The notes: a model not told the origin generated them from the letters alone. DNA of 32,000 nucleotides from Candidatus Methanoperedens sp. (GCA_041494705.1 JBGQBI010000004.1:180001-212000); one strand, 5' to 3'. Counted from the first letter of the stretch, positions 1 through 28,286 are shown. Made by a program: numbers and translations.

Positions 1-190
1 TATTTACAAGATGATCTAATTCAGACAACGAATATGACCATTCATCCCTTTTAAAACTGGTTGAGGAGAAAAATTCCTGGAGATTTTTTACAGGCTTTTT
101 GATTAAATCAACAGAATATTTTCCTTTAGACTTAGAAATTTTTGTAATTAGAAACTCTTTGTATTCTGGTTTTAAGTAATATTGGGGCAA
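1..190 (-). CDS. hypothetical protein, 5' part only (continues past window edge); probable last visible gene of the NurA/HerA/SMC-like operon
   Basis: The minus-strand frame is open for 63 codons down to position 2 with no stop (LPQYYLKPEYKEFLITKISKSKGKYSVDLIKKPVKNLQEFFSSTSFKRDEWSYSLSELDHLVN...). A candidate TTG start at 190..188 lies 12 nt after the TAA of the upstream ATPase gene and 3 nt after an AGGTGAT Shine-Dalgarno-like motif (200..194). It is absent from the ORF track, presumably because the edge truncates it. No motif recognised. Confidence 0.3.
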   Translation of the reverse strand, partial: MPQYYLKPEYKEFLITKISKSKGKYSVDLIKKPVKNLQEFFSSTSFKRDEWSYSLSELDHLVN

Positions 191-202
191 ATCATCACCT
201 AC

Positions 203-2272
203 TTACACAGGGACAGGGTCCCAGGTAATCTCTGACACTTTGCTGTCTGCTATGGTAATTAGTGCAAATATCGTTTCACCTTTTTTAATCTGGCTCTTTA
301 TCTCATCAACCAATATTCCAATGTTTTTTTCATCCATATGCCCGATTTCATCTACCAATATGATCTTCTTTTTCCCACCAAAATTCTGCTTTATACGGGA
401 TAAAATTGAATTTAGGGCGGTATGACCAGTTCCCATCTGAACAAATTTGATCGGTTTTCTATTTTTTACAATATATTGTCTGTTTACAAGATCGACTTTT
501 TCGACTACCCAAGATTTTTTCTCAAAGTATACATTTTGTAGAATTTCAGCAAAATATTCGGATAAAGCATCAAACAATTCTTTTGCATGCTTATAATCAA
601 TCCCCATATCTGTCTTTCTGAAATCAACCGGTTCGAGAGCCTTTTTCCATTTGTTTACTTTTGATATCAAATCAAAACATTTAGCAGATTCTTCCTCTAG
701 CCAATCTTCATCAAATGCAGGTAGGGTCTCTAATTCACCTAATTGTTCAATAAGAGCAACCAATGTCTTTTCTTTCTGTCCCAAGCTTGCAATCTCTATT
801 TCTAAATCTTCAAATTCTTTTTTTGTCCTTTTATATTGTTCACGTTGTCCGGGATTATCTAGAATTTCATCGATCTCATTTTCGGACAATGATTCAACAA
901 TCTCCTCATGTTTCGAAGATTCCTTCTCCAAAAGGTCTAATTTGCTTTCCAATTTCTTAATTTCCTTTTCAATCTGATCATATTCATACATTTGTTCTTC
1001 ATCGACATCAGGAATTTTATCACGCTTTACTTTGAGATCAGAAAGATATACTGAAAGTTTATTTAATTCGCTGCTAACTTCAGCCAAATCTCGTTTTTTC
1101 AAGATTTTAGGTTCTAATTGTTTGTTAAATTCATCTAACTCTTTATAAAATGAAAAAATATTTTTTTCATCGGTCCCGGGAACATTCATTTCAAGACTTA
1201 AATATCCCCTTAAAACTTCCATAATTTTATTGATTAATTCAGATTGTTTCTCTTCTTGTTTGAATTTCTCATTAAGAGGGTCATTTTTAAGATCCAAAAT
1301 GATTTTTTTTACATCATCAGTCCATTCTTCAATATTTTTTATTGCTATTTCTTTAGGACTATATAATTCATTAAGTTTTTTTTCAATTTTTTTAATAAAT
1401 GTGAGGTTTTCTTCTGATAAAATTTCACGATATTTTTTTATTAAAGATAGAGATTTTTTAGTGTTACTATTAACTATATTAAATTCAGTGACTTGTTGTT
1501 TGAACTTGGGGGTTCCACCGCCTAAACCTTTCTGCTTTAAATTTGTTCTTTTTTCCTTTAGACTAACTAATTCATTTTCATTTTGTTCATATAAATCCTC
1601 TATTTCGTAATATGAAATTACTTTATCAGCTATCTCTAATTTTGAGACTTCCGCTTCCACTCTATTTTTCAATTCTTTTTTATTTTCTAGTTCTCTCTTA
1701 GTTTCTTCCAATATACCCTTATTTTTTTGAATCTTTTTATCTTTCTCCTTAAAATCTATTATTTGAGTCCTTTTGTTACCCAAATCTTGGTCATATCTTG
1801 TGAGATATCTTTCATAATCTATGAGATTCTCTCTAATGAGACGAACCGATGATTGGAGTTTGACCAATGGATCATCCGGAACATCATAAAGTACTTGAAT
1901 ATTCTCATTAAAATATTCAGAACCTACGGGTTCACCATTTAATTTTGTATTCAGTGAACCTTTATCATATTGAGAATAGATTTCCATGAGACCATCCTTG
2001 CTTTTGATTATAAAATCAAATTTTAGGACATCCAATTTATCCGAACAAAGATATTCCATTTTGGCACGCAATGAATCTGAAATAATCCCTTTCTCGGCAA
2101 TGGTACTCTCATTCGCATACAGACCCAATGCGACCATATTTAGAGTTGTTGTTTTCCCCTGATCGTTTGTTCCTCGTATGAAGAATAAGTTATGATCCGA
2201 ATGCTCTTTTTTTGGAAATGTACATTTATACAGGGGCCCTCCGTCCTGGAATTCATAATTTATTGTGAACAT
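203..2272 (-). CDS. SMC/Rad50/SbcC/DndD-type ABC ATPase with long central coiled coil
   Basis: 689-aa ORF. N-terminal Walker A 'IRGTNDQGKTTTLNMV' follows a short beta-rich lead-in. About 400 aa of K/E/L-rich heptad-like sequence follows (predicted coiled coil, with breaks at 'KGLGGGTPK' and 'NVPGTDEKN'). C-terminal Walker B/D-loop is 'KKIILVDEIGHMDEKN'. No CxxC zinc hook. The start ATG overlaps the stop of the upstream 40-codon ORF (TAATG). Confidence 0.75.
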   Translation of the reverse strand: MFTINYEFQDGGPLYKCTFPKKEHSDHNLFFIRGTNDQGKTTTLNMVALGLYANESTIAEKGIISDSLRAKMEYLCSDKLDVLKFDFIIKSKDGLMEIYSQYDKGSLNTKLNGEPVGSEYFNENIQVLYDVPDDPLVKLQSSVRLIRENLIDYERYLTRYDQDLGNKRTQIIDFKEKDKKIQKNKGILEETKRELENKKELKNRVEAEVSKLEIADKVISYYEIEDLYEQNENELVSLKEKRTNLKQKGLGGGTPKFKQQVTEFNIVNSNTKKSLSLIKKYREILSEENLTFIKKIEKKLNELYSPKEIAIKNIEEWTDDVKKIILDLKNDPLNEKFKQEEKQSELINKIMEVLRGYLSLEMNVPGTDEKNIFSFYKELDEFNKQLEPKILKKRDLAEVSSELNKLSVYLSDLKVKRDKIPDVDEEQMYEYDQIEKEIKKLESKLDLLEKESSKHEEIVESLSENEIDEILDNPGQREQYKRTKKEFEDLEIEIASLGQKEKTLVALIEQLGELETLPAFDEDWLEEESAKCFDLISKVNKWKKALEPVDFRKTDMGIDYKHAKELFDALSEYFAEILQNVYFEKKSWVVEKVDLVNRQYIVKNRKPIKFVQMGTGHTALNSILSRIKQNFGGKKKIILVDEIGHMDEKNIGILVDEIKSQIKKGETIFALITIADSKVSEITWDPVPV

Positions 2273-2394
2273 TATTTTGTCTCCTCCAGAACTCCCTGGT
2301 TTTCAATTACTTTTTTGAGAAATTCGAATTCGTCCTCTTTAAGTAATTTTTTTAGCAGATTCTCCATTTCCTTATCAATTCTCTTTTTTACCAT
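2272..2394 (-). CDS. unannotated 40-aa small protein, translationally coupled on both sides
   Basis: Hand translation gives MVKKRIDKEMENLLKKLLKEDEFEFLKKVIENQGVLEETK*. The ATG at 2394..2392 shares one nt with the TGA of the HerA-like gene (TGATG). The TAA at 2274..2272 shares one nt with the ATG of the SMC-like gene (TAATG). It is below the 60-aa cutoff of the ORF track and fills the inter-ORF gap exactly. Confidence 0.45.
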   Translation of the reverse strand: MVKKRIDKEMENLLKKLLKEDEFEFLKKVIENQGVLEETK

Positions 2395-3941
2395 CATGCA
2401 CCACCCGATAATGACATTGGGAATTTTACGAATTTCAATTGACTCAGCCCATGGATTCGGGCGACACCAAATCCTGCACTAAATCCTTCTGGATCAAACC
2501 CTGCGGTCGTTATTCCAAGAGATTTGATTTTTGAAGAATCGGATTTGAAGTAAATCTTGGAATTCACGACGTTTGTAATTCCACTTGGCATATCTTCAGG
2601 ATTCTGTGAGGCAAATATTACCCCAATTTTCAGACTTCTTCCTTTTCTGCTAATAGAATCAAGAGTTTGGAGTGCCTGTTCACTTCTGGTGTTTCCATAA
2701 AATTCATGCACTTCATCGATAATGATTAACACTGGGACTGTTAATTCTTTGTTGCTCTTTGCATTATACACTTTGTCGAGCAAATCTCTGAGCAAAACAG
2801 AACCAAATCCAAAACCGTGTTTGCCGGTAACATCAATGACCGACATTTTCTTTGGCTGAAGGATATCTTCTGCCTGAAGCTCTCTAGCGTCTTTTACATC
2901 GAAAAACTCAGTTGCATGGGTTAAGGCTCGGTTAATATTGCTGAGAGTAGAAGTATGGAGTTTAGTTGGAAGGATATCCCCTAGAGAGTTTTCTGATTGA
3001 TATCCGCCCTCTTTTTCAGGATCTGAAAAATAAATGATAAAATCGTGTAAAGTATCGCTTTCTTCGGCCACATTGTTTTTCCAATAACGGAAAATTCCAG
3101 GGAGCTGATCGGCTGCAAGGTCAGAAATATTTTGAATCAAACCGGTCAGGGTTTCTGGATCTATGTTTTTCACTTTGAGTGTAATGCTCTCCGTAAGATC
3201 AATATTTACATATTTTGAGTATTTTGGTTTTTTATTTCCAGGGTAATATATTTTGTATCGTTCAATTCCTTTTGGCTGAATCCCAAGGTCTTTCCACTCT
3301 TTCATAATAACATCATTTGCAGCCTCAGTAGGTTTATCCATTGTAAGCATGTCCTCTTCTTTGACATTGATTGCGAGGACTGCACCGTTCATTTTTTCAA
3401 TAAAGTACTGAGCGAGATATTTCATCGCCACGGTCTTGCCAGACCCTGTCCTCCCGGTTATCAACATTTGGTAGAAAAAAACTTCTTCAGGGACATTTAC
3501 ATGGATGAATTGTTTTTCATCATCATAGAGATGCTGAACAGATCGAGAAAAGACTGTGGCGGGAAAAACTGGAATTCCCTTTGAATTATCGCCAAATGCA
3601 TAATGGACTTCTTCTTGATTCGATCTCCGTGCCTTTAGTTGTGGTTTAATAAAACTGCTACTTCCGTCATTTCTATCTGGGATTTCAACTATACGTATAG
3701 CAGAAATAATATTTTGACAGTTTTGATCTTGTTGAAGTGTCGGAAGGTCTAAATCTACAATTAATGTTGATGGCTTATAAGGATTATTTTGATAGGTATC
3801 TTCTGTTCGTACAATAAATTTTTTTCCTTCTTTCTCATCTTCTATTGTGATATATGATCCCTGATGTAAGATTCCGTCAGTACCCTGTTTTGATACGAGA
3901 ATTACTTTATCTCTATCTATATCCGCAACAATCCAAGTCAT
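2394..3941 (-). CDS. HerA/FtsK-superfamily (DUF87-like) hexameric ATPase/translocase
   Basis: 515-aa ORF with Walker A 'ITGRTGSGKTVAMKYL' and Walker B 'VLIIIDEVHEFYG'. 'FASQNPEDM' corresponds to the xTQRP-type motif of HerA-like ATPases. The beta-rich N-terminal ~130 aa is consistent with a HAS barrel. It lies 6 nt downstream of the NurA-like gene. Confidence 0.8.
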   Translation of the reverse strand: MTWIVADIDRDKVILVSKQGTDGILHQGSYITIEDEKEGKKFIVRTEDTYQNNPYKPSTLIVDLDLPTLQQDQNCQNIISAIRIVEIPDRNDGSSSFIKPQLKARRSNQEEVHYAFGDNSKGIPVFPATVFSRSVQHLYDDEKQFIHVNVPEEVFFYQMLITGRTGSGKTVAMKYLAQYFIEKMNGAVLAINVKEEDMLTMDKPTEAANDVIMKEWKDLGIQPKGIERYKIYYPGNKKPKYSKYVNIDLTESITLKVKNIDPETLTGLIQNISDLAADQLPGIFRYWKNNVAEESDTLHDFIIYFSDPEKEGGYQSENSLGDILPTKLHTSTLSNINRALTHATEFFDVKDARELQAEDILQPKKMSVIDVTGKHGFGFGSVLLRDLLDKVYNAKSNKELTVPVLIIIDEVHEFYGNTRSEQALQTLDSISRKGRSLKIGVIFASQNPEDMPSGITNVVNSKIYFKSDSSKIKSLGITTAGFDPEGFSAGFGVARIHGLSQLKFVKFPMSLSGGA

Positions 3942-3947
3942 TTATAT

Positions 3948-5000
3948 TCACCCAAACCTTTCTTGATTGATAGTTGATACCAAACCAATTCTTTTCATGA
4001 GTATGTTTAAATTCATCATCTTAATCGATTCCCTAGCAAATTTTTCAGCAATTATAATCGGACGAACTTGAGGATTTTTTTCATCTCCTTGGACGAGGAT
4101 AAGGTAATAAACAAGATTTATTATATTACTCAAAAAATCTATACCATATTTTTCTAAAGTAGAGATATGAAATTCAACTCGTTGGGGGCTAATATCATGT
4201 GGCTTAATATAACAAAAAACTTTACCGTTCTTTGGATTGTGTTTATCCTGATATTGAATAAAACTGGTTCGTTCTCCTTTTTTCAACAAAAGATACGACC
4301 AATGCATATCAGAATTAAAATTATTCTTCAATTTTTCGATATGATCCGTTACAAGATTACTTGAACTGTTTTTCACAATAAAAATTGGAATAAAATCTTG
4401 GTCTAACATCCAAGAATTTAATTTCGTGGTGTGGGAGCTGATCTGTCCACCAATTAATGGCCCGTCAATCATGATGATAGTGTTTTTTGGAAAATATTTG
4501 AAATTTTCCTTGAAAAACTCATCTCGTTCGTTTACGTAGAGTTCTTTTCTTTTACTCTCTACATTATCTGCATGATGAATATATTCAGATTTATCACTGA
4601 TCAGATTCGAACGCGTGAAAAAATTAAAAGTGAGCTTGACCACTGGTAGATAATCATTTTCACCAAGAAAAATAATGCTGTGAGCTGTTAGGTATGAACT
4701 TCCTTCAATAGCTTCAAATTTGTCTATTGATTCATCATATGCAGCGACTAAATAACCATTTTCGATGAGATTGGCACCATCTATTGGAGTTAATGGATAT
4801 TTTTTATCTATATCAAGAAATGATAAAACTCCTTCGGATGAAGGAAATGGATACGAATTAAAATCAACAGATTCTGGGATTGGAACATTTGGTAAATAGA
4901 TATTTTTTTGTTTTAACTCAATTAGGCTTTTAAAAAAATGCGGATGAGTTATTATTTTTCCAAACCCGGATAGAGAATTAGATGGAGACATAAGACACAT
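3948..5000 (-). CDS. NurA-like nuclease (RNase H-like fold), tentative
   Basis: 350-aa ORF immediately upstream of the HerA-like gene, which is the classical NurA-HerA arrangement. The order of acidic motifs fits NurA: 'TPIDGANL' (hDG after a beta strand), 'FLGENDY', 'IIMIDGPLIGG', and C-terminal 'RPIIIAEKFARE'. The start could be the second ATG at 4991. The call rests on synteny plus short motifs only. Confidence 0.5.
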   Translation of the reverse strand: MCLMSPSNSLSGFGKIITHPHFFKSLIELKQKNIYLPNVPIPESVDFNSYPFPSSEGVLSFLDIDKKYPLTPIDGANLIENGYLVAAYDESIDKFEAIEGSSYLTAHSIIFLGENDYLPVVKLTFNFFTRSNLISDKSEYIHHADNVESKRKELYVNERDEFFKENFKYFPKNTIIMIDGPLIGGQISSHTTKLNSWMLDQDFIPIFIVKNSSSNLVTDHIEKLKNNFNSDMHWSYLLLKKGERTSFIQYQDKHNPKNGKVFCYIKPHDISPQRVEFHISTLEKYGIDFLSNIINLVYYLILVQGDEKNPQVRPIIIAEKFARESIKMMNLNILMKRIGLVSTINQERFG

Positions 5001-5063
5001 TTTTATATATGTAGATATTTAAGTATAACCGAATTATATATAAATGTATTGTCTGGCTCTTTT

Positions 5064-5071
5064 AAAAAAAA
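5064..5071 (-). terminator. oligo-T tract (T8 on the minus strand) downstream of the Dam-class methylase gene
   Basis: A run of 8 A on the plus strand gives T8 on the coding strand, 44 nt after the methylase stop, within a 114-nt AT-rich spacer. Archaeal intrinsic terminators are oligo-T tracts. This suggests the methylase and the NurA/HerA operon may be separate transcription units. Confidence 0.3.
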
Positions 5072-5114
5072 GATGGTGATAAATCATAAATATATTTTAT
5101 TTCCAATCATTTTT

Positions 5115-5957
5115 TCATAAATCATAATTATAAATAAATAGTTCTTTACCTTTTTTCGCGGTTCTCTTTACATTAGATAATATTTTTTGATTATTTACTC
5201 CGTACTGTAATTCCCATTCAGAAATTTGTGCAAAGTTGAATAAATCTCTTATTTCAGGTGAGTCATCACAGGTTATAAGCCATCTGTGATTACATTCTTT
5301 CATTAATTTTGCGAAATGTTCATGGTTAAATGATTGGTGCAAATATCCTTTTTTTCCATATAATCTTGATTCACGAGAATTAAAATATGGAGGATCAAGA
5401 AAAATAAATACATTGTCTCCATCCATTTTTATCAAATTTTCATACTCCTCATTTGTAATCTGAACATCTTGCATTAATTCGGTTAAATTTTTTAGCCTTT
5501 CGATAGAAGACATGGTAAATCTTTTTTCAAAAGATTCTTGTGAATATCCTCCAGAGCCGGATAATCCAGAAAAAGTAATCCGGTTTAATACGAAAAATCT
5601 GATTGCAGTTTCAAGCTCAGACTCTTCATTTAAAACTTGAGTTATTAGGCTTTTATGTAAAGATTTACCATCTAATGACTGGTTTTTTATTCTAAGTACT
5701 TCTTCGATTAAATCTTCGCTGTTATCTCTTAGTTGTTTCCAAAAACAAAAAAGATCATAATTTAAGTCATTGATTTTAAATACTGAAGTATCTCTAGCTT
5801 GTTTGGCAGCGATAAATACAGAACCTCCACCAACAAAAGGCTCGCGAAATTCATCAAAATCTATTGGAATTCGAGGCAATATTTTTTTCAAAGCTCTTGC
5901 TTTCCCACCAGGATAACGGAGCGGAGTTCTTATTTTTAAGCCCATATATATCGACAA
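5115..5957 (-). CDS. Dam-class (D12, alpha-class) N6-adenine DNA methyltransferase
   Basis: 280-aa ORF with 'RYPGGKARAL' (Y/W-x-GGK N-terminal Dam motif), motif I 'EPFVGGGSVF' and motif IV 'LDPPYF'. The I-then-IV order indicates alpha class. An alternative start is the ATG at 5945. Confidence 0.85.
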   Translation of the reverse strand: MSIYMGLKIRTPLRYPGGKARALKKILPRIPIDFDEFREPFVGGGSVFIAAKQARDTSVFKINDLNYDLFCFWKQLRDNSEDLIEEVLRIKNQSLDGKSLHKSLITQVLNEESELETAIRFFVLNRITFSGLSGSGGYSQESFEKRFTMSSIERLKNLTELMQDVQITNEEYENLIKMDGDNVFIFLDPPYFNSRESRLYGKKGYLHQSFNHEHFAKLMKECNHRWLITCDDSPEIRDLFNFAQISEWELQYGVNNQKILSNVKRTAKKGKELFIYNYDL

Positions 5958-6063
5958 ATCTTTTTAAATAACAGCCAGTCATCATAAAAACAATAACATC
6001 ACTTAAATGTTACTAAATTTACAACGAGAGTGTTATTTTTACCTATATATTTCATGCACAAAT

Positions 6064-6642
6064 TCACATAAGCAGCAAATCCCAACCTATGCTCCTCCCC
6101 ATATCGCAATAATACTTCAATTTACAGCTATGCTCAATCTGCGCCGTGACAAAATAAGCCTCCTCAATCGTTTTCCCGGCAGCGAAAGTACCGTGTGCAA
6201 AAACGATAACGCCTTTGTGGTCTTTTAGCGCTCCCGAAGTATTATCCGCGAGTTCTTTTGTCCCGAAGCCGCCCCTCACCACCGGAATCTCATGCAGGAT
6301 ATACTGCCCTTCGCTGTCAGGAGGTACTATCTTATCATGCCCCAGCAGCGACTCGATAACCGAAAATGCGGGATGGGCATGGATAACCGCAAGCTCCGTC
6401 GTATTATTATAAATCGCCCTGTGAATCGGGCTTTCAGATGAAGCGATACTGTCATGACTTGAAGGCTTATCGATATCCACCTCCACAACGCTGTTTTCCG
6501 TTATCTCATCAAGAGGCACCCCGCTTTTTGTGATGAGCATCCGGCTTCCGGCGCGCACGCTCATATTCCCGAAATGCGATTCCACAAGCCCACGCTCCAC
6601 AAGCTTCTTGCCGAATTTTGCCATCTCCTGCCATTCAATCAT
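6064..6642 (-). CDS. class II aldolase/adducin-domain protein (FucA-like)
   Basis: 192-aa ORF with 'HFGNMSVR', 'VIHAHPAFS' (His zinc ligands) and 'VFAHGTFAAG'. These are typical of the fuculose-phosphate aldolase family. Confidence 0.75.
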   Translation of the reverse strand: MIEWQEMAKFGKKLVERGLVESHFGNMSVRAGSRMLITKSGVPLDEITENSVVEVDIDKPSSHDSIASSESPIHRAIYNNTTELAVIHAHPAFSVIESLLGHDKIVPPDSEGQYILHEIPVVRGGFGTKELADNTSGALKDHKGVIVFAHGTFAAGKTIEEAYFVTAQIEHSCKLKYYCDMGRSIGWDLLLM

Positions 6643-6681
6643 ATCTTAAATCCGAATTTTTCAATGAATTTTCAAACATAC

Positions 6682-7128
6682 TCATTTCCTCTTGAAAAAA
6701 AGCCAGGAATCCTTTCCCTTGAACCTGGTTTTAATCAAAGCATACCTGCCTGTTAATTTTCTTCCTTTAAGTTCAAAGAGCAGTTCATTATCCTTCTCGC
6801 TTTCAAGAATGAATTCGCCTTTATCCCATATCCGCACAGTCCCTGCGCCGTACATCCCTTCCGGTATCGTCCCTTCAAAATCAGCATATTCAAGCGGATG
6901 GTCTTCAGTCTGGATTGCAAGGCGCTTTTCACCCTCTTTGACCGGCGGCTCTTTGGGAACAGCCCACGAGCGAAGCACTCCTCCCATCTCAAGCCGAAGG
7001 TCATAATGCAAATGTGTGGCATCATGTTCATGGACTACAAAAATATTCCCTGCATGTGGTTTAATCGCGCCTTTCGGTTCAGGTGATTTTGAAAAATCTC
7101 TCAATTTATTATACTCATCAAGCGGCAT
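6682..7128 (-). CDS. stand-alone LigD-type 3'-phosphoesterase (PE) domain protein
   Basis: 148-aa ORF. 'FVVHEHDATHLHYDLRLE' and 'GVLRSWAVPKEPP' match the hallmark motifs of the DNA ligase D phosphoesterase domain. Confidence 0.8.
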   Translation of the reverse strand: MPLDEYNKLRDFSKSPEPKGAIKPHAGNIFVVHEHDATHLHYDLRLEMGGVLRSWAVPKEPPVKEGEKRLAIQTEDHPLEYADFEGTIPEGMYGAGTVRIWDKGEFILESEKDNELLFELKGRKLTGRYALIKTRFKGKDSWLFFKRK

Positions 7129-7132
7129 GGCA

Positions 7133-7762
7133 TCACCCGAAAGTAAATGCGCTCGGGCACAGCTTGTTCAAGACGCAGATTTCACATTTTGGTTTCTTCG
7201 CATCGCAGACCTGTCTTCCGTGCTGAATAAGCAACAGCGCGAAAATATCCCAGTCGTTTTTCGGGATGATTTTCATCAGGTCTTTTTCTATCTTTTCAGG
7301 GTCGGTGTTCGCTGACAGGCCAAGCCGCGAAGATAGCCTTTTCACATGCGTGTCCACAGCTATGCCCTCGATTTTCCCGAAAGCGCCTGATAATACGATG
7401 TTCGCCGTCTTTCTGGCAACTCCCGGCAGCGTGATAAGGTCTTCCATCGTGTCCGGGACTTTTGAATTGAAATTTTCAACCAGAATCCCGCATAGGTTTT
7501 TGATGTTTTTTGCCTTGTTCTTATAAAATCCGCTTGAGTAGATGTCTTTTTCAAGCTCTTCCTGCGGGGTATTCACATAATCCTGCGGCGCCCTGTACTT
7601 CTTGAAAAGGGTTTTTGTGACTTTATTTATCTGCTTATCAGTGCTTTGCGCCGAAAGGATGGTAGCAATCAGGAGTTCAAGGGGATTTGAAAAATCAAGA
7701 GCTATCTTTACATCCGGATACTCTTTTTTCAATAGCGCAATAATCCCATCGACTTTATCCAT
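7133..7762 (-). CDS. nth: endonuclease III (DNA glycosylase/AP lyase)
   Basis: 209-aa ORF with HhH-GPD region 'LITLPGVARKTANIVL' and 'VDTHV'. The C-terminal 4Fe-4S ligands 'CDAKKPKCEICVLNKLC' follow the pattern C-x6-C-x2-C-x5-C. Confidence 0.9.
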   Translation of the reverse strand: MDKVDGIIALLKKEYPDVKIALDFSNPLELLIATILSAQSTDKQINKVTKTLFKKYRAPQDYVNTPQEELEKDIYSSGFYKNKAKNIKNLCGILVENFNSKVPDTMEDLITLPGVARKTANIVLSGAFGKIEGIAVDTHVKRLSSRLGLSANTDPEKIEKDLMKIIPKNDWDIFALLLIQHGRQVCDAKKPKCEICVLNKLCPSAFTFG

Positions 7763-7836
7763 GTTTTCTATTATAAATTGCAGAATAGTTAAGAGTTTTG
7801 ACCGTGTAGTCCCGTATTCAAACTAAACAATTTTAA

Positions 7837-8952
7837 TTATCTTTGCGACTCTTTTTCAAACATGCTCCTGAGAGCGCGCGAGGATTTAACGACCTTTTCC
7901 AGAGCAGCCGAACGGGTTTGGGCGGTTGCGAGTATTGTTGTCACCGGTTCATCCTGTGAAACGACAGTTCCCGGTCGCGGTACATCGGCTGCTCTCCCCT
8001 TTTCCATGCATCCTTTAAGCGTATCTGAGACCGTTTTGCTTATCACGGTTTTCTTATCTGCATAAACAATTGACTTGGCCGCAAAACATACAGATTCTCT
8101 TACCTCTGGAAGTTCCCCTGAAAAGGATTTGACATGCGCATCGAAAATGTTTATTCCAAATGTCGGCTCCACAGTATCCATGCTGCCCTGGAAACGCGGA
8201 TTTACCTCGATGACCACTATGCCTTTCTCAGTTTGGATAAAATCCACGCCGTTTGAACCCAGAAGTCCGAATTCAAGAGAAATCTGCTTTGCATATCGTA
8301 CCATTTCATTATTGAATTTTGAATGGAATGGCGTGACGTTGCCGCAATAAGCAAAAGGCAGCCCGGTCAATGAAGGAACGCCTATTAACTGTTCATTCAG
8401 TGCAACCACAAAGGCATCCTCCCCGTTGCTTATTATAGAGGCGCTGCAGGGTATCCCTTCAATATATTCCTGCGCTATGAATTCACGGGCATCGTTTCTC
8501 TCTTTAAAAACAGACAATTCTTCCTCGTTTCTTACGACCATGTTCCGCATCCCTCCCGAACCTGATTTTGGCTTTATCATCAGCGGGAATCCAAGTTCAT
8601 GGGCTTTGTCTATTGATTCTGTTTCAGGATGGGGAATCCCCATCGACAAAAGCTTCCCCGGAAGCTTTGATTTGTCGCTGACCTCTTCCATGACTGCCGG
8701 CGGATTGTTTAATACGTTCTTAAATTTTAATTTCTCATAACCCGGTCCCAGAATCACGGCATCGGACCCACCAAAGGGTCTCGCTAATTCTTGCAATTCA
8801 TTTTCCTGGCTGCTTTTGAAAACCAGGGATTTATCAGAGCAGTTGCATGTGTCCACATCTCCAAAACGGTCAAGAGTAAAAACCGTGTATCCGGCTTTCT
8901 TTGCCGAACATACGATACTGCGGGCGCTGTTGGCTATAACCAGCACTTTCAT
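7837..8952 (-). CDS. ATP-grasp domain enzyme (predicted carboligase, substrate unknown)
   Basis: 371-aa ORF with 'PLMIKPKSGSGGMRNMVV', 'FIAQEYIEG' and 'VIEVNPRFQGS' (ATP-grasp E-x-N Mg site). It has an ATGA start/stop overlap with the upstream trm56-like gene. Confidence 0.7.
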   Translation of the reverse strand: MKVLVIANSARSIVCSAKKAGYTVFTLDRFGDVDTCNCSDKSLVFKSSQENELQELARPFGGSDAVILGPGYEKLKFKNVLNNPPAVMEEVSDKSKLPGKLLSMGIPHPETESIDKAHELGFPLMIKPKSGSGGMRNMVVRNEEELSVFKERNDAREFIAQEYIEGIPCSASIISNGEDAFVVALNEQLIGVPSLTGLPFAYCGNVTPFHSKFNNEMVRYAKQISLEFGLLGSNGVDFIQTEKGIVVIEVNPRFQGSMDTVEPTFGINIFDAHVKSFSGELPEVRESVCFAAKSIVYADKKTVISKTVSDTLKGCMEKGRAADVPRPGTVVSQDEPVTTILATAQTRSAALEKVVKSSRALRSMFEKESQR

Positions 8953-9482
8953 TTGCTTATTACCTCTTTGCCTCTTTTTTTGGGAATAATCTCAATCTCG
9001 CCCCCTGTAAATTGCGTTTTCAAAGCGTCCTTCCCCTCTGCAGCCTTAAGCCTGTCAAGAATTATGGCAAGCGCCGCGACCTCGGAGTGCGGCTGGTTTC
9101 CCACAGCCACGTTCCAGTCTGCAAGTTCGTACATCTCAGGCGGAACTTTCTCTGCGCCGACTACAATCATAAGATTCTCCGCATCCGCCGCTATTTGCGG
9201 TATCGCATCCGGGAGATTGACGCCGTACATGGTTAGATGCAGCACCTTCCCGCCTGCTTCTTTCCATTTTTTAATCTCACTTTTCCAGCTTGCAATCCTT
9301 CTTACATAGAACGAGCCGCCCCACCTTGCCGCTGCCTCGTTCAGGCTCTTCTCGATGCCGCTGTCATCAGAATCAAGGAGCATGCCCTCTGCACCCAGGG
9401 CGCGCGCCGTGAGTGCAACATGAGTGGTTATCCTCTGGTCTCTCTGGATGCGGTGGCCGAGACGGAGTATTGTAATTCGCAT
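8949..9482 (-). CDS. tRNA (cytidine56-2'-O)-methyltransferase, aTrm56 (SPOUT)
   Basis: 'MRITILRLGHRIQRDQRITTHVALTARALGA' is the characteristic aTrm56 N-terminus. The ORF track starts at 9536, but I place the start at the ATG at 9482, 18 codons downstream, which gives that canonical N-terminus. Confidence 0.8.
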   Translation of the reverse strand: MRITILRLGHRIQRDQRITTHVALTARALGAEGMLLDSDDSGIEKSLNEAAARWGGSFYVRRIASWKSEIKKWKEAGGKVLHLTMYGVNLPDAIPQIAADAENLMIVVGAEKVPPEMYELADWNVAVGNQPHSEVAALAIILDRLKAAEGKDALKTQFTGGEIEIIPKKRGKEVISK

Positions 9483-9604
9483 AGGTTTGACGTGAATATA
9501 CATGCGGGCATTTAAATTGATGCCCAAAAAGCCCAATCAAAAGTGTTATATGAAGCCACCACCATAAAAAACCATTCAATTATCACGATTAAACGAGGAA
9601 TTTT

Positions 9605-10009
9605 ATGAGCGAAAAAATTGGAATACTGGCACTCGGGCATGGAAGTAAACTCCCCTATAACAAAGACGTGGTGACAGGGGTTGCCGGGCTTATTGCGAAG
9701 AAATACAGGAACGTGGTCGTCAGGACCGGTTTTATGAATATGAACAATCCCACAATGAAGGAAGGGCTTGACGCTTTCAAGGGTACGGGCGTGACCACTA
9801 TCGTGGCCGTCCCTATTTTCCTGGCGCATGGCGTTCATACCACGGAAGACATACCCCATATCCTTGGCGTAAGCCGCGAGGACAGGAAAACCACGATAAA
9901 ATTAGATGGCAGGGATGTAACGCTTGTATATTCGGAACCGCTCGGCGTTGATGAACTGGTCGCTGAACTGGCATTCAAGAGGGCACAGGAAGCCCTTTCA
10001 TCGAATTGA
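9605..10009 (+). CDS. cfbA: small CbiX-type sirohydrochlorin chelatase (CfbA-like nickel/cobalt chelatase)
   Basis: 134-aa ORF with 'GILALGHGSK' and 'FLAHGVHTTEDIPHIL' (CbiX-S His motifs). It is directly coupled to a Mur-ligase-like gene, as in F430 biosynthesis clusters. Confidence 0.7.
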   Translation: MSEKIGILALGHGSKLPYNKDVVTGVAGLIAKKYRNVVVRTGFMNMNNPTMKEGLDAFKGTGVTTIVAVPIFLAHGVHTTEDIPHILGVSREDRKTTIKLDGRDVTLVYSEPLGVDELVAELAFKRAQEALSSN

Positions 10010-11367
10010 TGCATTTTAAATCCTCATCCAGAGTAGCCGTTCTTGACCTGACACACGGCGGCGCGGTAATAGCCCGGAAGCTCAAGGATATTGTAAGCGA
10101 AATTGCTGCGGTTGATGTGTATAAGACGCTGGGCGCAGGAGAGTTAGACGCTCTGGAAAATTGCGGCATAAGAACTTCCCGCGAACCGCTGGACGCATCT
10201 GATTTTGACATCATAATTGCCCCTGTGCATCTTGATTCCAATTATCCCATGCTCAAGGATGCACTTTCGAATAATATACCTGTTTTATCGCATCATGCAG
10301 CGGTAGGGCAGATTTTATCCGGGTACAACCTGAAAAATAAAACCCTGGTTGAAATAACAGGCACGAAAGCAAAAACAAGCACAGCAATCCTGCTTGCCGG
10401 GATTTTATCCGTGGAAAAAAAGGTGGTATCACACACAAGCCGCGGCATTGAGGACTGGAGTGCTGGAAAAGTAATCAAAAAAGGGTTGAGCATAACGCCT
10501 GCAAGCGTCCTTTCGGCGCTTGACGTTTTGATAGAGTCGGGCATTGAATTTGACGTGTTCATATCGGAAATTTCACTTGGCGGGACAGGCTGTGCCGATA
10601 TCGGAGTGATTACCACAATAGCCAATGACTATAAAATAGCCAGTGGCACAAAGCTGGCAAGCGACGCAAAGCGCCAGATGATACTTAATGCAAAACCCAA
10701 AAGTTCGGTAGTGGTAAACAACGATGCTTTGAGGTTTTTCGGGGCATGCAGAAGGGACTTGAATATTATTTCCTTCACTGATTCAGTCGATGCCTCATGC
10801 AATGTTTATTACGAGGACGAAAAAACAATAGCGTATTACGTTGATAAAAAACACGGCAGGATAGCTCTCCCTGAAGCGCAGGGTTACGATATGACCGCCT
10901 ATAAAACCGCATTTGTGTGTGCAACTGCCGCGGCTCTCGCGATTAATACCGGCGCCGATGCCATCGGGCATGCGCTTTGTGAATTTAGCGGCGCCGAGGG
11001 GCGCATGAAAAAGACCACCTTTGACGGAAGAACGCTGATAGATAACTCAAATTCAGGGATGGACGTCAGGGCTGCTGAAAAGGCTCTCGATTTTTCAAAA
11101 GTGGAGGGGGGTAGAATCGTCATGGTGCTCGGCGAGGAGGCAAAAGAAGTATGCGAAGGGCTTGACCCCTCGGGTGTTGAACAGTTCATCCAAAAGCACC
11201 TCGATGAACTTGCAGCCCTTGTGCTTGTGGGAGAAAGAATGAAGCCGCTTGTTAATACCGGAAATAATATCCATTATGCCATGAGTCTGGCAGCCGGGAT
11301 TGAACTTGCAAAAAAATTGACGCATGAAAAGGATATTATTTTATCCTGTGTGAAGTGTTTCAGGTAA
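10009..11367 (+). CDS. cfbE: Mur-ligase-family protein, probable coenzyme F430 synthetase (CfbE-like)
   Basis: About 452-aa ORF with N-terminal 'VLDLTHGG' and the Mur-ligase P-loop 'ITGTKAKTSTA'. It is adjacent to the CbiX-S gene. The ORF track uses TTG at 10006; the ATG at 10009 overlaps the upstream TGA by 1 nt (TGATG). Confidence 0.6.
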   Translation: MHFKSSSRVAVLDLTHGGAVIARKLKDIVSEIAAVDVYKTLGAGELDALENCGIRTSREPLDASDFDIIIAPVHLDSNYPMLKDALSNNIPVLSHHAAVGQILSGYNLKNKTLVEITGTKAKTSTAILLAGILSVEKKVVSHTSRGIEDWSAGKVIKKGLSITPASVLSALDVLIESGIEFDVFISEISLGGTGCADIGVITTIANDYKIASGTKLASDAKRQMILNAKPKSSVVVNNDALRFFGACRRDLNIISFTDSVDASCNVYYEDEKTIAYYVDKKHGRIALPEAQGYDMTAYKTAFVCATAAALAINTGADAIGHALCEFSGAEGRMKKTTFDGRTLIDNSNSGMDVRAAEKALDFSKVEGGRIVMVLGEEAKEVCEGLDPSGVEQFIQKHLDELAALVLVGERMKPLVNTGNNIHYAMSLAAGIELAKKLTHEKDIILSCVKCFR

Positions 11368-11373
11368 TTAAAT

Positions 11374-12294
11374 ATGGAACTTAAAAGACCCATCAAACAT
11401 GCGAAGATTGGACGTGACATGACCGTGAGCGAGCTTGTGGAGGCGTTTTCCGGCTGCGCTTTCGGGGCCGGGCGCCTTTTTGAAGCCGTGGATATTTACA
11501 GGGAGATGGTCAAAGACCGGGAATGCACGAAGTTCTTCGGGCTTGCGGGCGCTATGGTTCCCGCCGGAATGAGGCAAATTGTAAGCGACATGATAAGGGA
11601 CGGGGAAATCGATATTCTTGTCACCACGGGCGCCAATCTTGTCCATGATATCATCGAATCCATGGGACTTCACCATTACAAGGGAACTGACGTGGCAGAC
11701 GATGTGCAGCTAAAACATGATGCCATAAACCGCATCTATGACGTGTTCCTCCCCGAGCATCATTTTACGGATTTTGAGGAGAAGCTGCAATCGATTTTTA
11801 AGGTAATCCCGGAAAACCTGTCGATAACCGAACTTCTCTCGCACATCGGCGCAAAACTGGACGATGACAACTCTATACTCAAAAGCGCCTATGACATGGG
11901 CGTTCCCGTTTACTGCCCCGCTATCCAGGATTCGATAATTGGTTTGCAGGCATGGTTATACAAACAGACAAAGCCGCTCAACGTAGATGTATTTGCAGAT
12001 ATGCGGGGATTGATTGACAGGTGCTACGAGGCAAAACGCGCCGGCGTTATGATAGTGGGCGGCGGTGTTCCCAAGAACTTCATCCTCCAGTCCATGCTTG
12101 TCACGCCGAGGTCTTTTGATTATGCCATCCAGCTTACCATGGACAGGCCCGAAACCGGCGGGCTCTCAGGCGCCACGCTTGATGAGGCGCGCTCGTGGGG
12201 AAAAATCGGTGAGAAAGCGAGGTCTGTGACTGTTTATTCAGATGCCACCATCACGCTTCCCATAATTGTGGCTGCGGCGAAAAGTGGGAAATAA
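11374..12294 (+). CDS. dys: deoxyhypusine synthase
   Basis: 306-aa ORF with 'ILVTTGANLVHD', 'GGGVPKNFILQ' and 'GATLDEARSWGK'. These are typical of the archaeal DHS family. Confidence 0.9.
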   Translation: MELKRPIKHAKIGRDMTVSELVEAFSGCAFGAGRLFEAVDIYREMVKDRECTKFFGLAGAMVPAGMRQIVSDMIRDGEIDILVTTGANLVHDIIESMGLHHYKGTDVADDVQLKHDAINRIYDVFLPEHHFTDFEEKLQSIFKVIPENLSITELLSHIGAKLDDDNSILKSAYDMGVPVYCPAIQDSIIGLQAWLYKQTKPLNVDVFADMRGLIDRCYEAKRAGVMIVGGGVPKNFILQSMLVTPRSFDYAIQLTMDRPETGGLSGATLDEARSWGKIGEKARSVTVYSDATITLPIIVAAAKSGK

Positions 12295-12305
12295 ATAAGA
12301 TCAAA

Positions 12306-12854
12306 TCAGATAATCTTATTATCTCCCATCAATTTTTGCGTAGATATCCAGAAGCATATGACCGTAAAAGGATAGGTTACGAGCCAGCCCACAGCGAGAA
12401 CTCCCCCGATACTGTTAATCACCAGCAGGATAACCCCGAGTATTATCGAGAATTGAAAATTTTCCCTTCCGATCCTGTAGCTCTTCTTGAGTGAATCAAT
12501 TGCCCCGAGGTTCTCTCCAATCGCGATAAGGATCGCATACTGGAAAAGGAATAATAGTATCAGCCCGGGTATAATGAGAAGAATAAGCCCGGCCAGTATC
12601 GCCAAACCGCCGATAATAGCCATCACCCAGCTTACAGCGAAGTAATCAAAACCCTTGAAAACGTCTTTTATTTCCACTTCTTCACCACGAATGATCTTCC
12701 GTCCCATAATGTAGAGCCCGAAGAGCAATGGTGGCGCCGTGATAATCAGAATCGAACCTATTGCCGCGACAACTGTTGCAACAATAAATACGGCGAATTG
12801 TTTCTTGTATATGTCGAAACCTTCACTTAAAATATCTTCCACTTTCAAATTCAA
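12306..12854 (-). CDS. integral membrane protein, function unknown
   Basis: 182-aa ORF with about 4-5 long hydrophobic segments (for example '[31 protein letters not shown]' and '[21 protein letters not shown]'). Confidence 0.6.
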
Positions 12855-12946
12855 AGAATCAACTCCAAGCCAATATAATCCCCGACAAATTATATAGTTT
12901 TTCTATATAGTTTATCCTGTTAGTATTCTTACCGAACACCATGTAA

Positions 12947-13108
12947 TCATTTTTTTGTTCTTATGCGCGCCCCGGGTTCACCGCTACAAGTAAAAGGCTC
13001 TATCTCCACTTCTGACCCTTCTTTGAGTTCTAACTTTTCACATATCTCCACTGGTATGGTAATTACCAGGTTTTTACCGGATTTGCGAAGTTTTACTACT
13101 TCACCCAT
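12947..13108 (-). CDS. unannotated AbrB/SpoVT/MazE-type small DNA-binding protein (53 aa)
   Basis: Hand translation gives MGEVVKLRKSGKNLVITIPVEICEKLELKEGSEVEIEPFTCSGEPGARIRTKK*. The segment 'KSGKNLVITIPVEICEKLELKEGSEVEIE' has the typical swapped-hairpin AbrB-like pattern. It starts 16 nt after the stop of the radical SAM gene on the same strand and is below the ORF-track cutoff. Confidence 0.6.
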   Translation of the reverse strand: MGEVVKLRKSGKNLVITIPVEICEKLELKEGSEVEIEPFTCSGEPGARIRTKK

Positions 13109-13124
13109 ATTATCACTCTATGGC

Positions 13125-14270
13125 TCACAACCGTTTCATCATTATCGCCATTATCCCCGGCTTTGCATCCCTCACAGGCTCTGACGGAAACCCAAACATC
13201 GGCATACCTCCGCCTCCCAAAAACTCCTTCTCCCACCGCTCGGTTATTTCCTTGAATATCCTCTTATAAGCAGTACAGTGGGGATCGACGCCCTTTATTT
13301 CACAATCCGTAGGCGCCATGGCATTATAGGGGCATCCACCCCGGCAGAATTTGATGTATTTGCATTCCCCGCAATTCTTGTCCACATATTCCTTGAACTG
13401 GAACATGAGTTTCCATGCATGAGAATTCGCAAGGTCTTCCCTGCCCGGATGGTCATGAACATTGCCCATCACATATTTTGGCAAGCCGACAAAGCGGTAG
13501 CATGGATATATGCTCCCGTCAGGCCCGACCGCAAAGGTATCCCCCATGCAGTCCACGAAGGTGCAGACGGTGCCCCGGCTGGTGAACACGCATTTGCACA
13601 GGTGGTCAATATTCATAAGTTCAATCTTACCCATGTTTTCCAGGTATTTATCAAGAAGATAAACTAACAATTCCCCGTACTCTTCGGGGTCAAGCGCCCA
13701 TTTCCCTGGGTTTTCGGAACGTATCGATGGCAGTGCTGGATGCAATTTAAAATTCAAACCATTCTTTAGGAAAAAATTGAAAATATCCTCTTTTAACTTT
13801 ACGGAATGAGAGGTAAAGGTACAGATGAAACTCACCTTGAGACCCGCAGCCTTTGCAATTTCATAGCCCCGCATGGTCTTCTTGTAGTATCCTTTTCCTC
13901 TCTGGAGGTCGGTAAGCTCTTCGGGACCGTCTAGGCTTGAACCGATGGGAATATTATACTCAGCCAGGATTTGTGCTATTTCCGGCGTCATTTTCCAGAG
14001 ATTGGTCTGCAGGGCAAAAGCCGGTTTCAGATGAGCTAAACCCCGGGCGAGCATGGGCAGCGCCTGCCTGTAAAAATCCGCGCCTGCAAGGAGCGGCTCA
14101 CCGCCGTGGAAAGTAAATGTAACCGGATCTTTGCGGAAATCTTTTAGCCATTTAACCGTTTCTTCGATGGTTTCAATGCTCATTATCGGAGAACCTTCCT
14201 CGGAACTCCAGCAATAACTGCATTTGGAAGGACAGCCCAGCGTAGGGATTATCATCACGTGAAAAGCCAT
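13125..14270 (-). CDS. radical SAM enzyme with C-terminal SPASM-type auxiliary cluster domain
   Basis: 381-aa ORF. 'GCPSKCSYCW' gives the CX3CX2C radical SAM motif. The Cys-rich C-terminal region 'CGECKYIKFCRGGCPYN ... CTAYK' fits SPASM/anSME-like maturases. Confidence 0.85.
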   Translation of the reverse strand: MAFHVMIIPTLGCPSKCSYCWSSEEGSPIMSIETIEETVKWLKDFRKDPVTFTFHGGEPLLAGADFYRQALPMLARGLAHLKPAFALQTNLWKMTPEIAQILAEYNIPIGSSLDGPEELTDLQRGKGYYKKTMRGYEIAKAAGLKVSFICTFTSHSVKLKEDIFNFFLKNGLNFKLHPALPSIRSENPGKWALDPEEYGELLVYLLDKYLENMGKIELMNIDHLCKCVFTSRGTVCTFVDCMGDTFAVGPDGSIYPCYRFVGLPKYVMGNVHDHPGREDLANSHAWKLMFQFKEYVDKNCGECKYIKFCRGGCPYNAMAPTDCEIKGVDPHCTAYKRIFKEITERWEKEFLGGGGMPMFGFPSEPVRDAKPGIMAIMMKRL

Positions 14271-14794: not shown

Positions 14795-14889
14795 ATGTAG
14801 GTAAAATAGTAAACCAAATATATAAAACCTCTTTCAAGGTTTTGGGGAGAAGTCGCTATAGTTTTTGCTCGGTCTTTGTAAAAACGAAG

Positions 14890-14963
14890 CGGGCTGGGAG
14901 GGATTTGAACCCACGGCCGTCGGATTAAGAGTCCGACGCTCTGCCTGTCTAAGCTACCAGCCC
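14890..14963 (-). tRNA. tRNA-Lys (anticodon CUU)
   Basis: Hand-folded cloverleaf on the minus strand. Acceptor GGGCTGG/CCAGCCC has 7 bp. D arm is GCTT-AGACAGGCA-GAGC. Anticodon arm is TCGGA-CTCTTAA-TCCGA (anticodon CTT). The variable loop is CGGCC, the T arm is GTGGG-TTCAAAT-CCCTC with one U-U mismatch, and the discriminator is G. CCA is not encoded. Confidence 0.8.
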
Positions 14964-28271: not shown

Positions 28272-28286
28272 GTTAGGTTAATAACT

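Follow-up and report, generated by a model that had tools for sequence, protein, structure and literature searches.

A mobile NurA-HerA-SMC-like gene cassette linked to DNA methyltransferases in archaea and bacteria, a candidate restriction-modification-like defence system

We analysed a 32,000-nt stretch of DNA from Candidatus Methanoperedens sp. (GCA_041494705.1, JBGQBI010000004.1:180001-212000), referred to below as the window, and focused on a cassette of six open reading frames (ORFs) at its left end, all of them on the minus strand. The cassette opens with a D12-class (Dam-like) DNA methyltransferase (MTase) gene at 5115..5957. Across a spacer of 114 nt (5001..5114) it is followed by five tightly packed genes, called here the core. 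These genes code for a predicted NurA-like nuclease with an RNase-H fold (350 aa, 3948..5000), a HerA/FtsK-family, hexameric translocase-like ATPase (515 aa, 2394..3941), a predicted helical micro-protein (41 aa, 2272..2397), an ATPase of the Rad50/SMC class of ABC ATPases with a long coiled coil (689 aa, 203..2272), and a sixth protein of which the window holds the first 63 codons, counted from a TTG at 190 (1..190). The extended 2.07-Mb contig of the Joint Genome Institute (JGI) that encodes the 689-aa protein (L001) completes this last ORF, as the preliminary description of the window had hoped, at 291 aa (L001:12083-12958).

The cassette sits in an island delimited by its base composition. 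Within the window the island spans 1..6060, with a G+C fraction of 0.326 compared to 0.458 in positions 6061-26975; in L001 it runs on for about 0.9 kb past the left edge of the window and reaches about 6.9 kb in total (approximately 6210-13100). It is flanked by an aldolase-II gene on one side and by two HicB-like genes, then DeoC, on the other. A Candidatus Methanoperedens metagenome-assembled genome (MAG, L011) carries a copy of the cassette with 90% NurA identity and the same flanking genes. A search for an empty site found none, the island being present on every contig with an identical aldolase gene, and no direct repeats bracketing the island were found.

The junctions between the core genes are very short. 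A gap of 6 nt separates the NurA-like gene from the HerA-like gene; the latter overlaps the micro-ORF by ATGA (within the string TGATG), the micro-ORF overlaps the SMC-like gene by a single nucleotide (TAATG), and 12 nt containing AGGTGAT precede the 291-aa gene. In the spacer, a run of eight T's is followed by TTTATATA boxes approximately 40 nt ahead of the NurA-like ATG. By its succession of T-run and box, the spacer resembles an archaeal terminator with a promoter behind it, which is probably the core operon's own. A scan for sigma-70 promoters was uninformative (18 sites compared to 27 expected), the host being an archaeon. The preliminary description had been made from the sequence alone, and its six minus-strand ORFs, protein motifs, tight junctions, T-run spacer and base composition were all reproduced, down to the exact G+C counts of 16 and 37 in the 60-nt lines starting at 1261 and 9361. 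Its ORF coordinates also stood, except for the start of the MTase, placed at TTG 5957 (280 aa); an ATG at 5945 is the more likely start and gives 276 aa, the length of the gene call on the JGI contig.

The MTase matched the Pfam D12 family (PF02086) at 2.2e-37 and the PADLOC profile MTase_II (PDLC03247) at 4.4e-115, while its score of 114.6 bits against TIGR00571 dam fell just short of the cut-off of 114.85. Its translation carries YPGGK, FVGGGS and DPPY, and by these similarities it is predicted to be a Dam-class enzyme that makes N6-methyladenine (m6A).

For the 350-aa protein the match to Pfam NurA (PF09376) was modest (1.6e-5, 25 bits with a cut-off of 21) and covered residues 173-278 only; therefore, the protein was modelled with AlphaFold2 (AF2) from 32 homologues. 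The model had a mean predicted local distance difference test (pLDDT) of 87.9 and a predicted template modelling (pTM) score of 0.86. In a Foldseek search it matched Sulfolobus (S. solfataricus) NurA 2ygk (E 5e-5, template modelling (TM) scores 0.46/0.50), the NurA chain of the T. kodakarensis HerA-NurA complex (9x1l_G), Pyrococcus NurA (3tal/3taz) and also the PIWI domains of Argonautes, with which NurA has the RNase-H fold in common. Acidic residues invariant among the 32 homologues are D89, E90 (YDES), D179 (IDGPL), D231 (NSD), E276 and E319, and the translation carries IDGA, MIDGPL and PIIIAEKFA. The model and the conserved residues support a predicted nuclease with the NurA fold and acidic residues of catalytic type. 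The family profile found no match among PDB sequences, and the protein found none in PADLOC-DB v2.

The 515-aa protein matched Pfam HerA_C (3.6e-8), DUF87 (4.6e-6) and also AAA_10, as well as S. solfataricus HerA in the PDB (4d2i, 4.9e-6). Its best PADLOC HerA profile was 'type III coevolved' (3.2e-19), the CRISPR type-III-associated HerA of Shah et al. Of its positions, 88 were conserved in at least 95% of the 36 homologues compared, the Walker A (G163-T170) and Walker B (D409-E410) motifs among them; the translation reads GRTGSGKT, IIIDEVHEF and FASQNPEDM at its motifs. Scores against the NCBIfam repair equivalogs NF040819 and NF040937 were 33.5 and 28.6 bits, compared to cut-offs of 970 and 800. 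Weak matches were found to the VirB4, TraD, CedB and FtsK families and to phage terminase/FtsK-like PHROGs.

The window's 689-aa protein itself had no Pfam match; among its relatives, 17 of 27 matched Pfam AAA_23 and one matched SMC_N (5.7e-15). The family has a conserved Walker A (G34-T42), a signature-like G614-T615-G616, a Walker B (D641-E642) and a D-loop (D647), and the window protein carries GTNDQGKTT and ILVDEIGHMD. No CxxC zinc hook was found in its sequence. An exhaustive HMMER search found the family to be closed, with 187 cluster representatives, the full-length ones nearly all of about 640-730 aa. When the family profile was run against PDB sequences, it picked up no more than P-loop and coiled-coil background, the matches to Rad50 and JetC being marginal. 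The D12, HerA and ABC-ATPase matches and the modelled NurA fold thus hold up the family assignments of the preliminary description, which had named a Dam-class methylase, a NurA-like protein (a call that the lack of a NurA/RNase H-like fold would have undone), a HerA-like ATPase and an SMC/Rad50-like ATPase.

Between the two ATPase genes, a micro-ORF of 40-63 aa occupied the same slot on the same strand in 35 of the 36 loci listed, and in close pairs the ratio of nonsynonymous to synonymous change (pN/pS) was about 0.3. We see that the 41-aa ORF is a real gene under purifying selection. Since it overlaps both the HerA-like stop and the SMC-like start, its translation is, by the layout of the sequence, predicted to be coupled to both genes. 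No family match was found for the micro-protein in Pfam, PADLOC or NCBIfam. The micro-proteins of a Candidatus Peribacteria MAG of the candidate phyla radiation (CPR; L034:3420-3599) and of a Methanococcoides MAG (L035:12562-12741) differ at only about 10 of 59 residues, which reflects either a very recent transfer between domains or a binning error.

The 291-aa protein (about 295 aa in the family) was present in every complete cassette and belongs to no known family; PADLOC-DB v2 has no model for it. Its AF2 model (pLDDT 86.8, pTM 0.62) shows H-H-H-beta-beta elements, and its predicted fold appears multi-domain and winged-helix-like. Nothing significant was found by Foldseek among PDB folds, the best match being MukE (E 0.5), and the family profile had one match among PDB sequences (E 1.7). 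The family has no invariant acidic residues and conserves a basic RRxDxLPKKT motif. With low certainty, the model suggests a non-enzymatic DNA-binding partner of the ATPase; a kleisin-, KITE- or DndG-like character would be a guess. In an uncultured Methanosarcinales MAG (L017:5938-7713) this gene is tandemly duplicated, with products of 294 and 293 aa that are both strong family members.

To determine how widely the cassette occurs, a census was made over one genome per species in 185,579 species. The cassette was found at 38 loci, 25 archaeal and 13 bacterial going by the record labels. Archaeal hosts include Methanoperedens and other Methanomicrobia, Methanosarcinales, Methanococcoides, Methanosuratincola, Atabeyarchaeia (Asgard), Bathyarchaeia, Thermoplasmatota and DPANN lineages. 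The bacterial hosts come from Bacillota, Bacteroidota, Chloroflexota and CPR among other groups: Neobacillus, other Bacillota, Mucilaginibacter, Chitinophagales, Anaerolineaceae, Cloacimonadota, Neomarinimicrobiota, Peribacteria and Dialister. The species scan, the loci from a look-up of exact proteins and one IMG/VR contig together gave 33 complete cassettes. In all 33 the order NurA, HerA, micro-protein, ATPase and ~295-aa protein was kept on a single strand, so the genes that the preliminary description had grouped together do co-occur elsewhere.

The core was more AT-rich than the sequence 1.5-6 kb away in 22 of the 23 loci with usable flanks, with a mean difference of 10.6 GC points and a largest one of 25.6. 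Therefore, the cassette is foreign wherever it is located. Along with its patchy presence across both domains, this bears out the earlier proposal of a horizontally acquired module; the cassette is horizontally mobile, well delimited and conserved. A tblastn search of 72,556 plasmids and 50,697 phage records found no homologues of the cassette, and it was carried by one of 2.9 million viral contigs in IMG/VR. In a Chloroflexia MAG (L046:10739-15646) we observed a decayed copy of the entire cassette, in which many short ORFs are what is left of the HerA-like, SMC-like and 291-aa genes.

A DNA MTase gene accompanied 25 of the 33 complete cassettes, immediately adjacent in 21 and one gene away in four. 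The link is strong, not obligatory. Its class varied (D12 in 19 cases, beta-class PF01555 in five, type I HsdM in one), as did its position (13 upstream and 12 downstream of the core) and its strand. Among 143 non-core neighbours, with the D12 enzymes counted apart, the only family seen more than three times was N6_N4_Mtase, with six. In four bacterial loci the MTase gene overlapped the start of the NurA-like gene by 10-37 nt. Beside the window's MTase there is no recognisable cognate restriction enzyme; between it and the flanking housekeeping genes lies only the five-gene core, and none of the five core families resembles a restriction enzyme, a class of proteins often unrecognisable by sequence. 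In another Methanoperedens MAG (L015:2388-3934) the upstream beta-class methylase comes in two pieces, of 141 and 114 aa, and may be a frameshifted or decaying modification gene.

The components showed different rates of divergence. The median pairwise identity was 53% for HerA, 45% for NurA and 39% for the D12 MTase, compared to 23% for the 291-aa protein and 22% for the SMC-like ATPase. Spearman correlations of the distances were high among the ATPase, the 291-aa protein and HerA (rho 0.84-0.87), lower between NurA and these three (0.49-0.62) and weak between the MTase and the core (0.19-0.43). Such a pattern fits a conserved effector, a fast-evolving sensor that would contact HerA, and an exchangeable modification gene.

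On the basis of the families and folds, the synteny, the MTase linkage, the foreign composition and the co-evolution patterns shown above, we lean towards reading the cassette as a horizontally mobile defence system akin to restriction-modification (R-M). We infer that its function is defence, that the proteins form a complex, that methylation is read out and which component would touch the DNA first. The separately transcribed MTase would mark the host DNA. The SMC-like ATPase, its ~295-aa winged-helix-like partner and the 41-aa peptide would make up a fast-evolving, ATP-driven module for DNA surveillance, which may recognise foreign DNA either as unmarked DNA or by its exposed ends and would then load or license the conserved complex of a HerA hexamer and a NurA dimer. 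By homology, this complex would thread double-stranded DNA (dsDNA) and degrade both strands processively. The T. kodakarensis HerA-NurA complex, whose structure has been solved, degrades both dsDNA strands from ends and has no dsDNA endonuclease activity; its authors proposed an antiviral or defence role (2026; PMC12977600). As the cassette has no obvious dsDNA endonuclease, entry would be through DNA ends or through melting by the ATPases that exposes single strands to NurA. A more specific version of the proposal, which is possible and which we put forward tentatively, would be an undescribed immunity of archaea and bacteria: the ATPase, the winged-helix-like partner and the ~45-aa peptide read self through exchangeable marks, m6A or N4-methylcytosine (m4C), and license HerA-NurA to shred unmarked DNA.

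Several observations weigh against the R-M-like reading. HerA-NurA requires a DNA end, and no cassette component is an evident dsDNA endonuclease. For eight of the 33 cassettes (L014, L017, L024, L026, L035, L043, L053 and L054) no MTase lies within two genes, three of these cassettes having very short flanks. Moreover, linked MTases may in some cases be part of a classical R-M system located beside the cassette; for example, L005 has a 312-aa ORF with no assigned function in front of its MTase, and the MTase of L022 is a type I HsdM. The frequent exchange of the MTase and its weak co-evolution with the core make a fixed reader of one methylated motif unlikely. The 291-aa protein, with no significant structural match, has a DNA-binding role that is only suggested.

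Alternatively, the core could be a methylation-independent defence of the Lamassu/Wadjet type, with an SMC-like sensor of ends or of foreign topology activating the nuclease, and with the MTases being separate orphan or R-M genes that cluster beside it in defence islands. The cassettes that have no nearby MTase, the variation of MTase family, side and strand, the low correlations of MTase distances with those of the core, and the appearance of L005 and L022 as adjacent independent R-M systems all suit such a core, as do the weak matches to LmuB of 15 of 27 SMC-like members (best 4.7e-12). Against it, an MTase directly adjoins 21 of 33 cassettes, no other neighbour recurs, in four loci its gene runs into the start of the NurA-like gene, and in most cases no restriction partner belonging to it can be recognised. 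Moreover, MTases of varying class around a fixed core also occur in accepted methylation-based systems such as DISARM. We consider this explanation unlikely, if the strongest of those that compete with an R-M-like system.

A distinctly less likely explanation is a laterally transferred module for double-strand-break repair or recombination, a Rad50-like protein and HerA-NurA working without Mre11 in the maintenance of the host's or a mobile element's genome. All three enzyme families are indeed those of the archaeal mre11-rad50-herA-nurA operon, and the island is present in all strains with the identical aldolase gene. SbcD/SbcC (Mre11/Rad50-like) genes adjoin the cassette in the metagenomic loci L053 (13862-17035) and L054 (13871-17053), both without an adjacent MTase, and fragments of such genes lie upstream of it in Bathyarchaeota L019 (6293-9582). 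These neighbours are compatible with repair and count to that extent against defence. Of about 40 loci, no more than 2-3 have SbcD-like genes beside the cassette. The adjacency may be due to chance; alternatively, it may point to variants that recruit a nuclease for end processing. Repair also agrees poorly with a HerA-like protein far under the repair equivalog cut-offs, the lack of Mre11 and zinc hook, an extremely patchy presence across both domains, the foreign composition, the MTase linkage, and the arms-race-like rates at which the SMC-like and 291-aa components evolve. Cargo that serves a mobile element itself appears very improbable; it might help to transfer or package DNA, to partition the element or to keep competitors out, and the MTase would be an anti-restriction device. 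The HerA-like protein's weak matches to VirB4, TraD, CedB, FtsK and phage packaging families, the integrases or recombinases adjoining L007, L053 and L056, and the IMG/VR contig speak for it. The near absence of the cassette from plasmid, phage and viral sequences speaks against it, as do the lack of bracketing direct repeats and of any membrane, relaxase, replication or capsid genes in the cassette.

We compared the cassette with known systems, as the preliminary description had been unable to match the gene combination to any named one. PADLOC-DB v2 recognised only the MTase and a generic HerA, as its models cover neither the NurA-like protein nor the micro-protein nor the 291-aa protein. 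The literature searched yielded no account of the cassette, subscription literature lying outside that search. Most likely, the cassette is a new architecture of restriction-like defence assembled from known domain families. The closest parallel in content is the archaeal mre11-rad50-herA-nurA operon, along with bacterial NurA-HerA, where a HerA ATPase stands beside a NurA nuclease and a Rad50/SMC-class coiled-coil ATPase; the cassette effector and the HerA-NurA of this operon probably act in the same way, with dsDNA threaded through HerA into NurA. Unlike the operon, the cassette has no Mre11 (no Metallophos match among its six proteins) and no CxxC hook, its ATPase belongs to a closed family of its own, and its HerA-like protein does not approach the repair models. 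It adds the micro-protein and the ~295-aa winged-helix-like protein, and it is MTase-linked, mobile, AT-rich and sporadic. With no Mre11 and no hook, a presence at only 38 loci in the species surveyed and an AT-richness that stands out from its flanks, it is not a housekeeping operon, in agreement with the preliminary description, to which it had not looked like one.

Sir2-HerA ('Nezha') and DUF4297-HerA are also mobile defence loci in which an effector, toxic or degradative, accompanies a HerA ATPase. However, they consist of two genes and involve no methylation, whereas the cassette has a NurA partner, three further conserved genes and an MTase; Pfam and PADLOC found neither Sir2 nor DUF4297 among the neighbours of the HerA-like gene. 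Like the cassette as proposed here, Lamassu (LmuACB/DdmABC) and Wadjet (JetABCD) have an SMC/Rad50-like ATPase as DNA sensor, assisted by a small partner that is not an enzyme and coupled to a nuclease. Among the specific PADLOC matches of the ATPase family, LmuB was the most frequent (15 of 27 relatives at E 0.01 or below), with PtuA, AriA, DndD and JetC at similar levels; these weak matches are at superfamily level, and so is that of the window's 689-aa protein to LmuB (E 0.047). Unlike in Lamassu and Wadjet, the effector is a HerA-NurA motor-nuclease and an MTase is linked. PADLOC found no homologues of LmuC or LmuA in the cassette, the 291-aa family included, and no JetA, JetB or JetD, while JetC was weakly matched by 3 of 27 ATPases.

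DISARM, BREX and MADS likewise join a multi-gene restriction core to an MTase of varying class on mobile islands. However, they have no core proteins in common with the cassette, in which PglZ, PglX, BrxC, DrmA, DrmB and DrmC are absent. MADS was considered and rejected: the sole match was mad8 (9.6e-15), in the P-loop region of the HerA-like protein, and mad6 and mad7 were absent, while MAD6, MAD7 and MAD8 are all mandatory in the MacSyFinder model of the system (bioRxiv 10.1101/2023.03.30.534895). The MADS profiles are generic, as they were made from HHpred alignments to PDB entries.

The 'HerA/FtsK capture' systems and DndFGH have, like the cassette, a HerA/FtsK translocase, a nuclease and a fast-evolving multi-winged-helix DNA-binding protein, and the logic proposed for the capture systems is to seize invading DNA and feed it to the nuclease (Rakesh, Aravind & Krishnan 2024, PMC10853773). 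They use Orc/Cdc6 AAA+ ATPases with REase or inactive-REase domains, or the DndH architecture; none of them contains NurA, an SMC-like ABC ATPase or the micro-protein, and NurA is unmentioned in that paper. Both the 'HerA/FtsK capture' and the BREX-related capture systems were rejected as having other architectures. Sets of Dnd (DndA/C/D/E) or Pbe (PbeABCD) genes were absent, PADLOC finding only weak ATPase-level matches to DndD (5 of 27) and PbeC (3 of 27). A weak match to the NCBIfam 'TrlF family' (3.3e-7, with a cut-off of 350 bits) was dropped, and the literature on TrlF yielded unrelated acronyms only.

Whether HerA-NurA serves in repair or in DNA-destroying defence is an open question, and the T. 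kodakarensis study argues for defence without a genetic system (PMC12977600). The cassette offers a test case, as it places HerA-NurA in a mobile, methylase-linked, defence-island setting with an SMC-like sensor module and a micro-protein. Were the proposal true, HerA-NurA would be a dedicated restriction effector here, and the cassette would be a natural system in which to settle which of the two was its ancestral job. If confirmed, the cassette would moreover extend the known multi-gene defence architectures by one that archaea (including Asgard and DPANN) and bacteria have in common, and it would add a case of an immune complex with a small peptide among its fixed subunits. Cultured carriers, namely Neobacillus piezotolerans, Mucilaginibacter straminoryzae and the methanogen Methanolacinia paynteri, make cloning and challenge feasible.

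Genes of defence or mobility often neighboured the cassette, which speaks for the R-M-like defence reading: an integrase (L007), HNH and Mrr nucleases, a type I HsdM, a McrBC-like pair with a recombinase (L053), NERD-UvrD (L054), AIPR with an integrase (L056) and the HicB-like genes of L001. A second, more canonical HerA gene with strong DUF87/HerA_C matches lies 1-2 kb downstream of the cassette in an Atabeyarchaeia chromosome (L005:16575-18017) and in a metagenomic locus (L056:15987-17023). The HicB/UPF0150-like antitoxin genes at the far end of the L001 island (13036-13842) have no obvious toxin gene, and one copy of a 46-nt direct repeat (93% identical, containing GGGTAACCC) stands beside each of them, at L001 13286-13331 and 13797-13842.

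A second AT-rich island, with a G+C of 0.30 compared to about 0.5, was observed in the window at 26976-29999 on the plus strand, where it directly follows an anaerobic ribonucleotide-reductase-like gene. It codes for a 431-aa beta-class DNA methylase (PF01555, 7e-46, SPPY) and a 570-aa protein with IIDGQHR, which matched DndB weakly and under the cut-off (7.7e-6), and by its gene content it looks like an independent methylase-linked two-gene system. The sole tRNA gene of the window, tRNA-Lys (CTT) at 14889-14963 on the minus strand, adjoins neither of the AT-rich islands.

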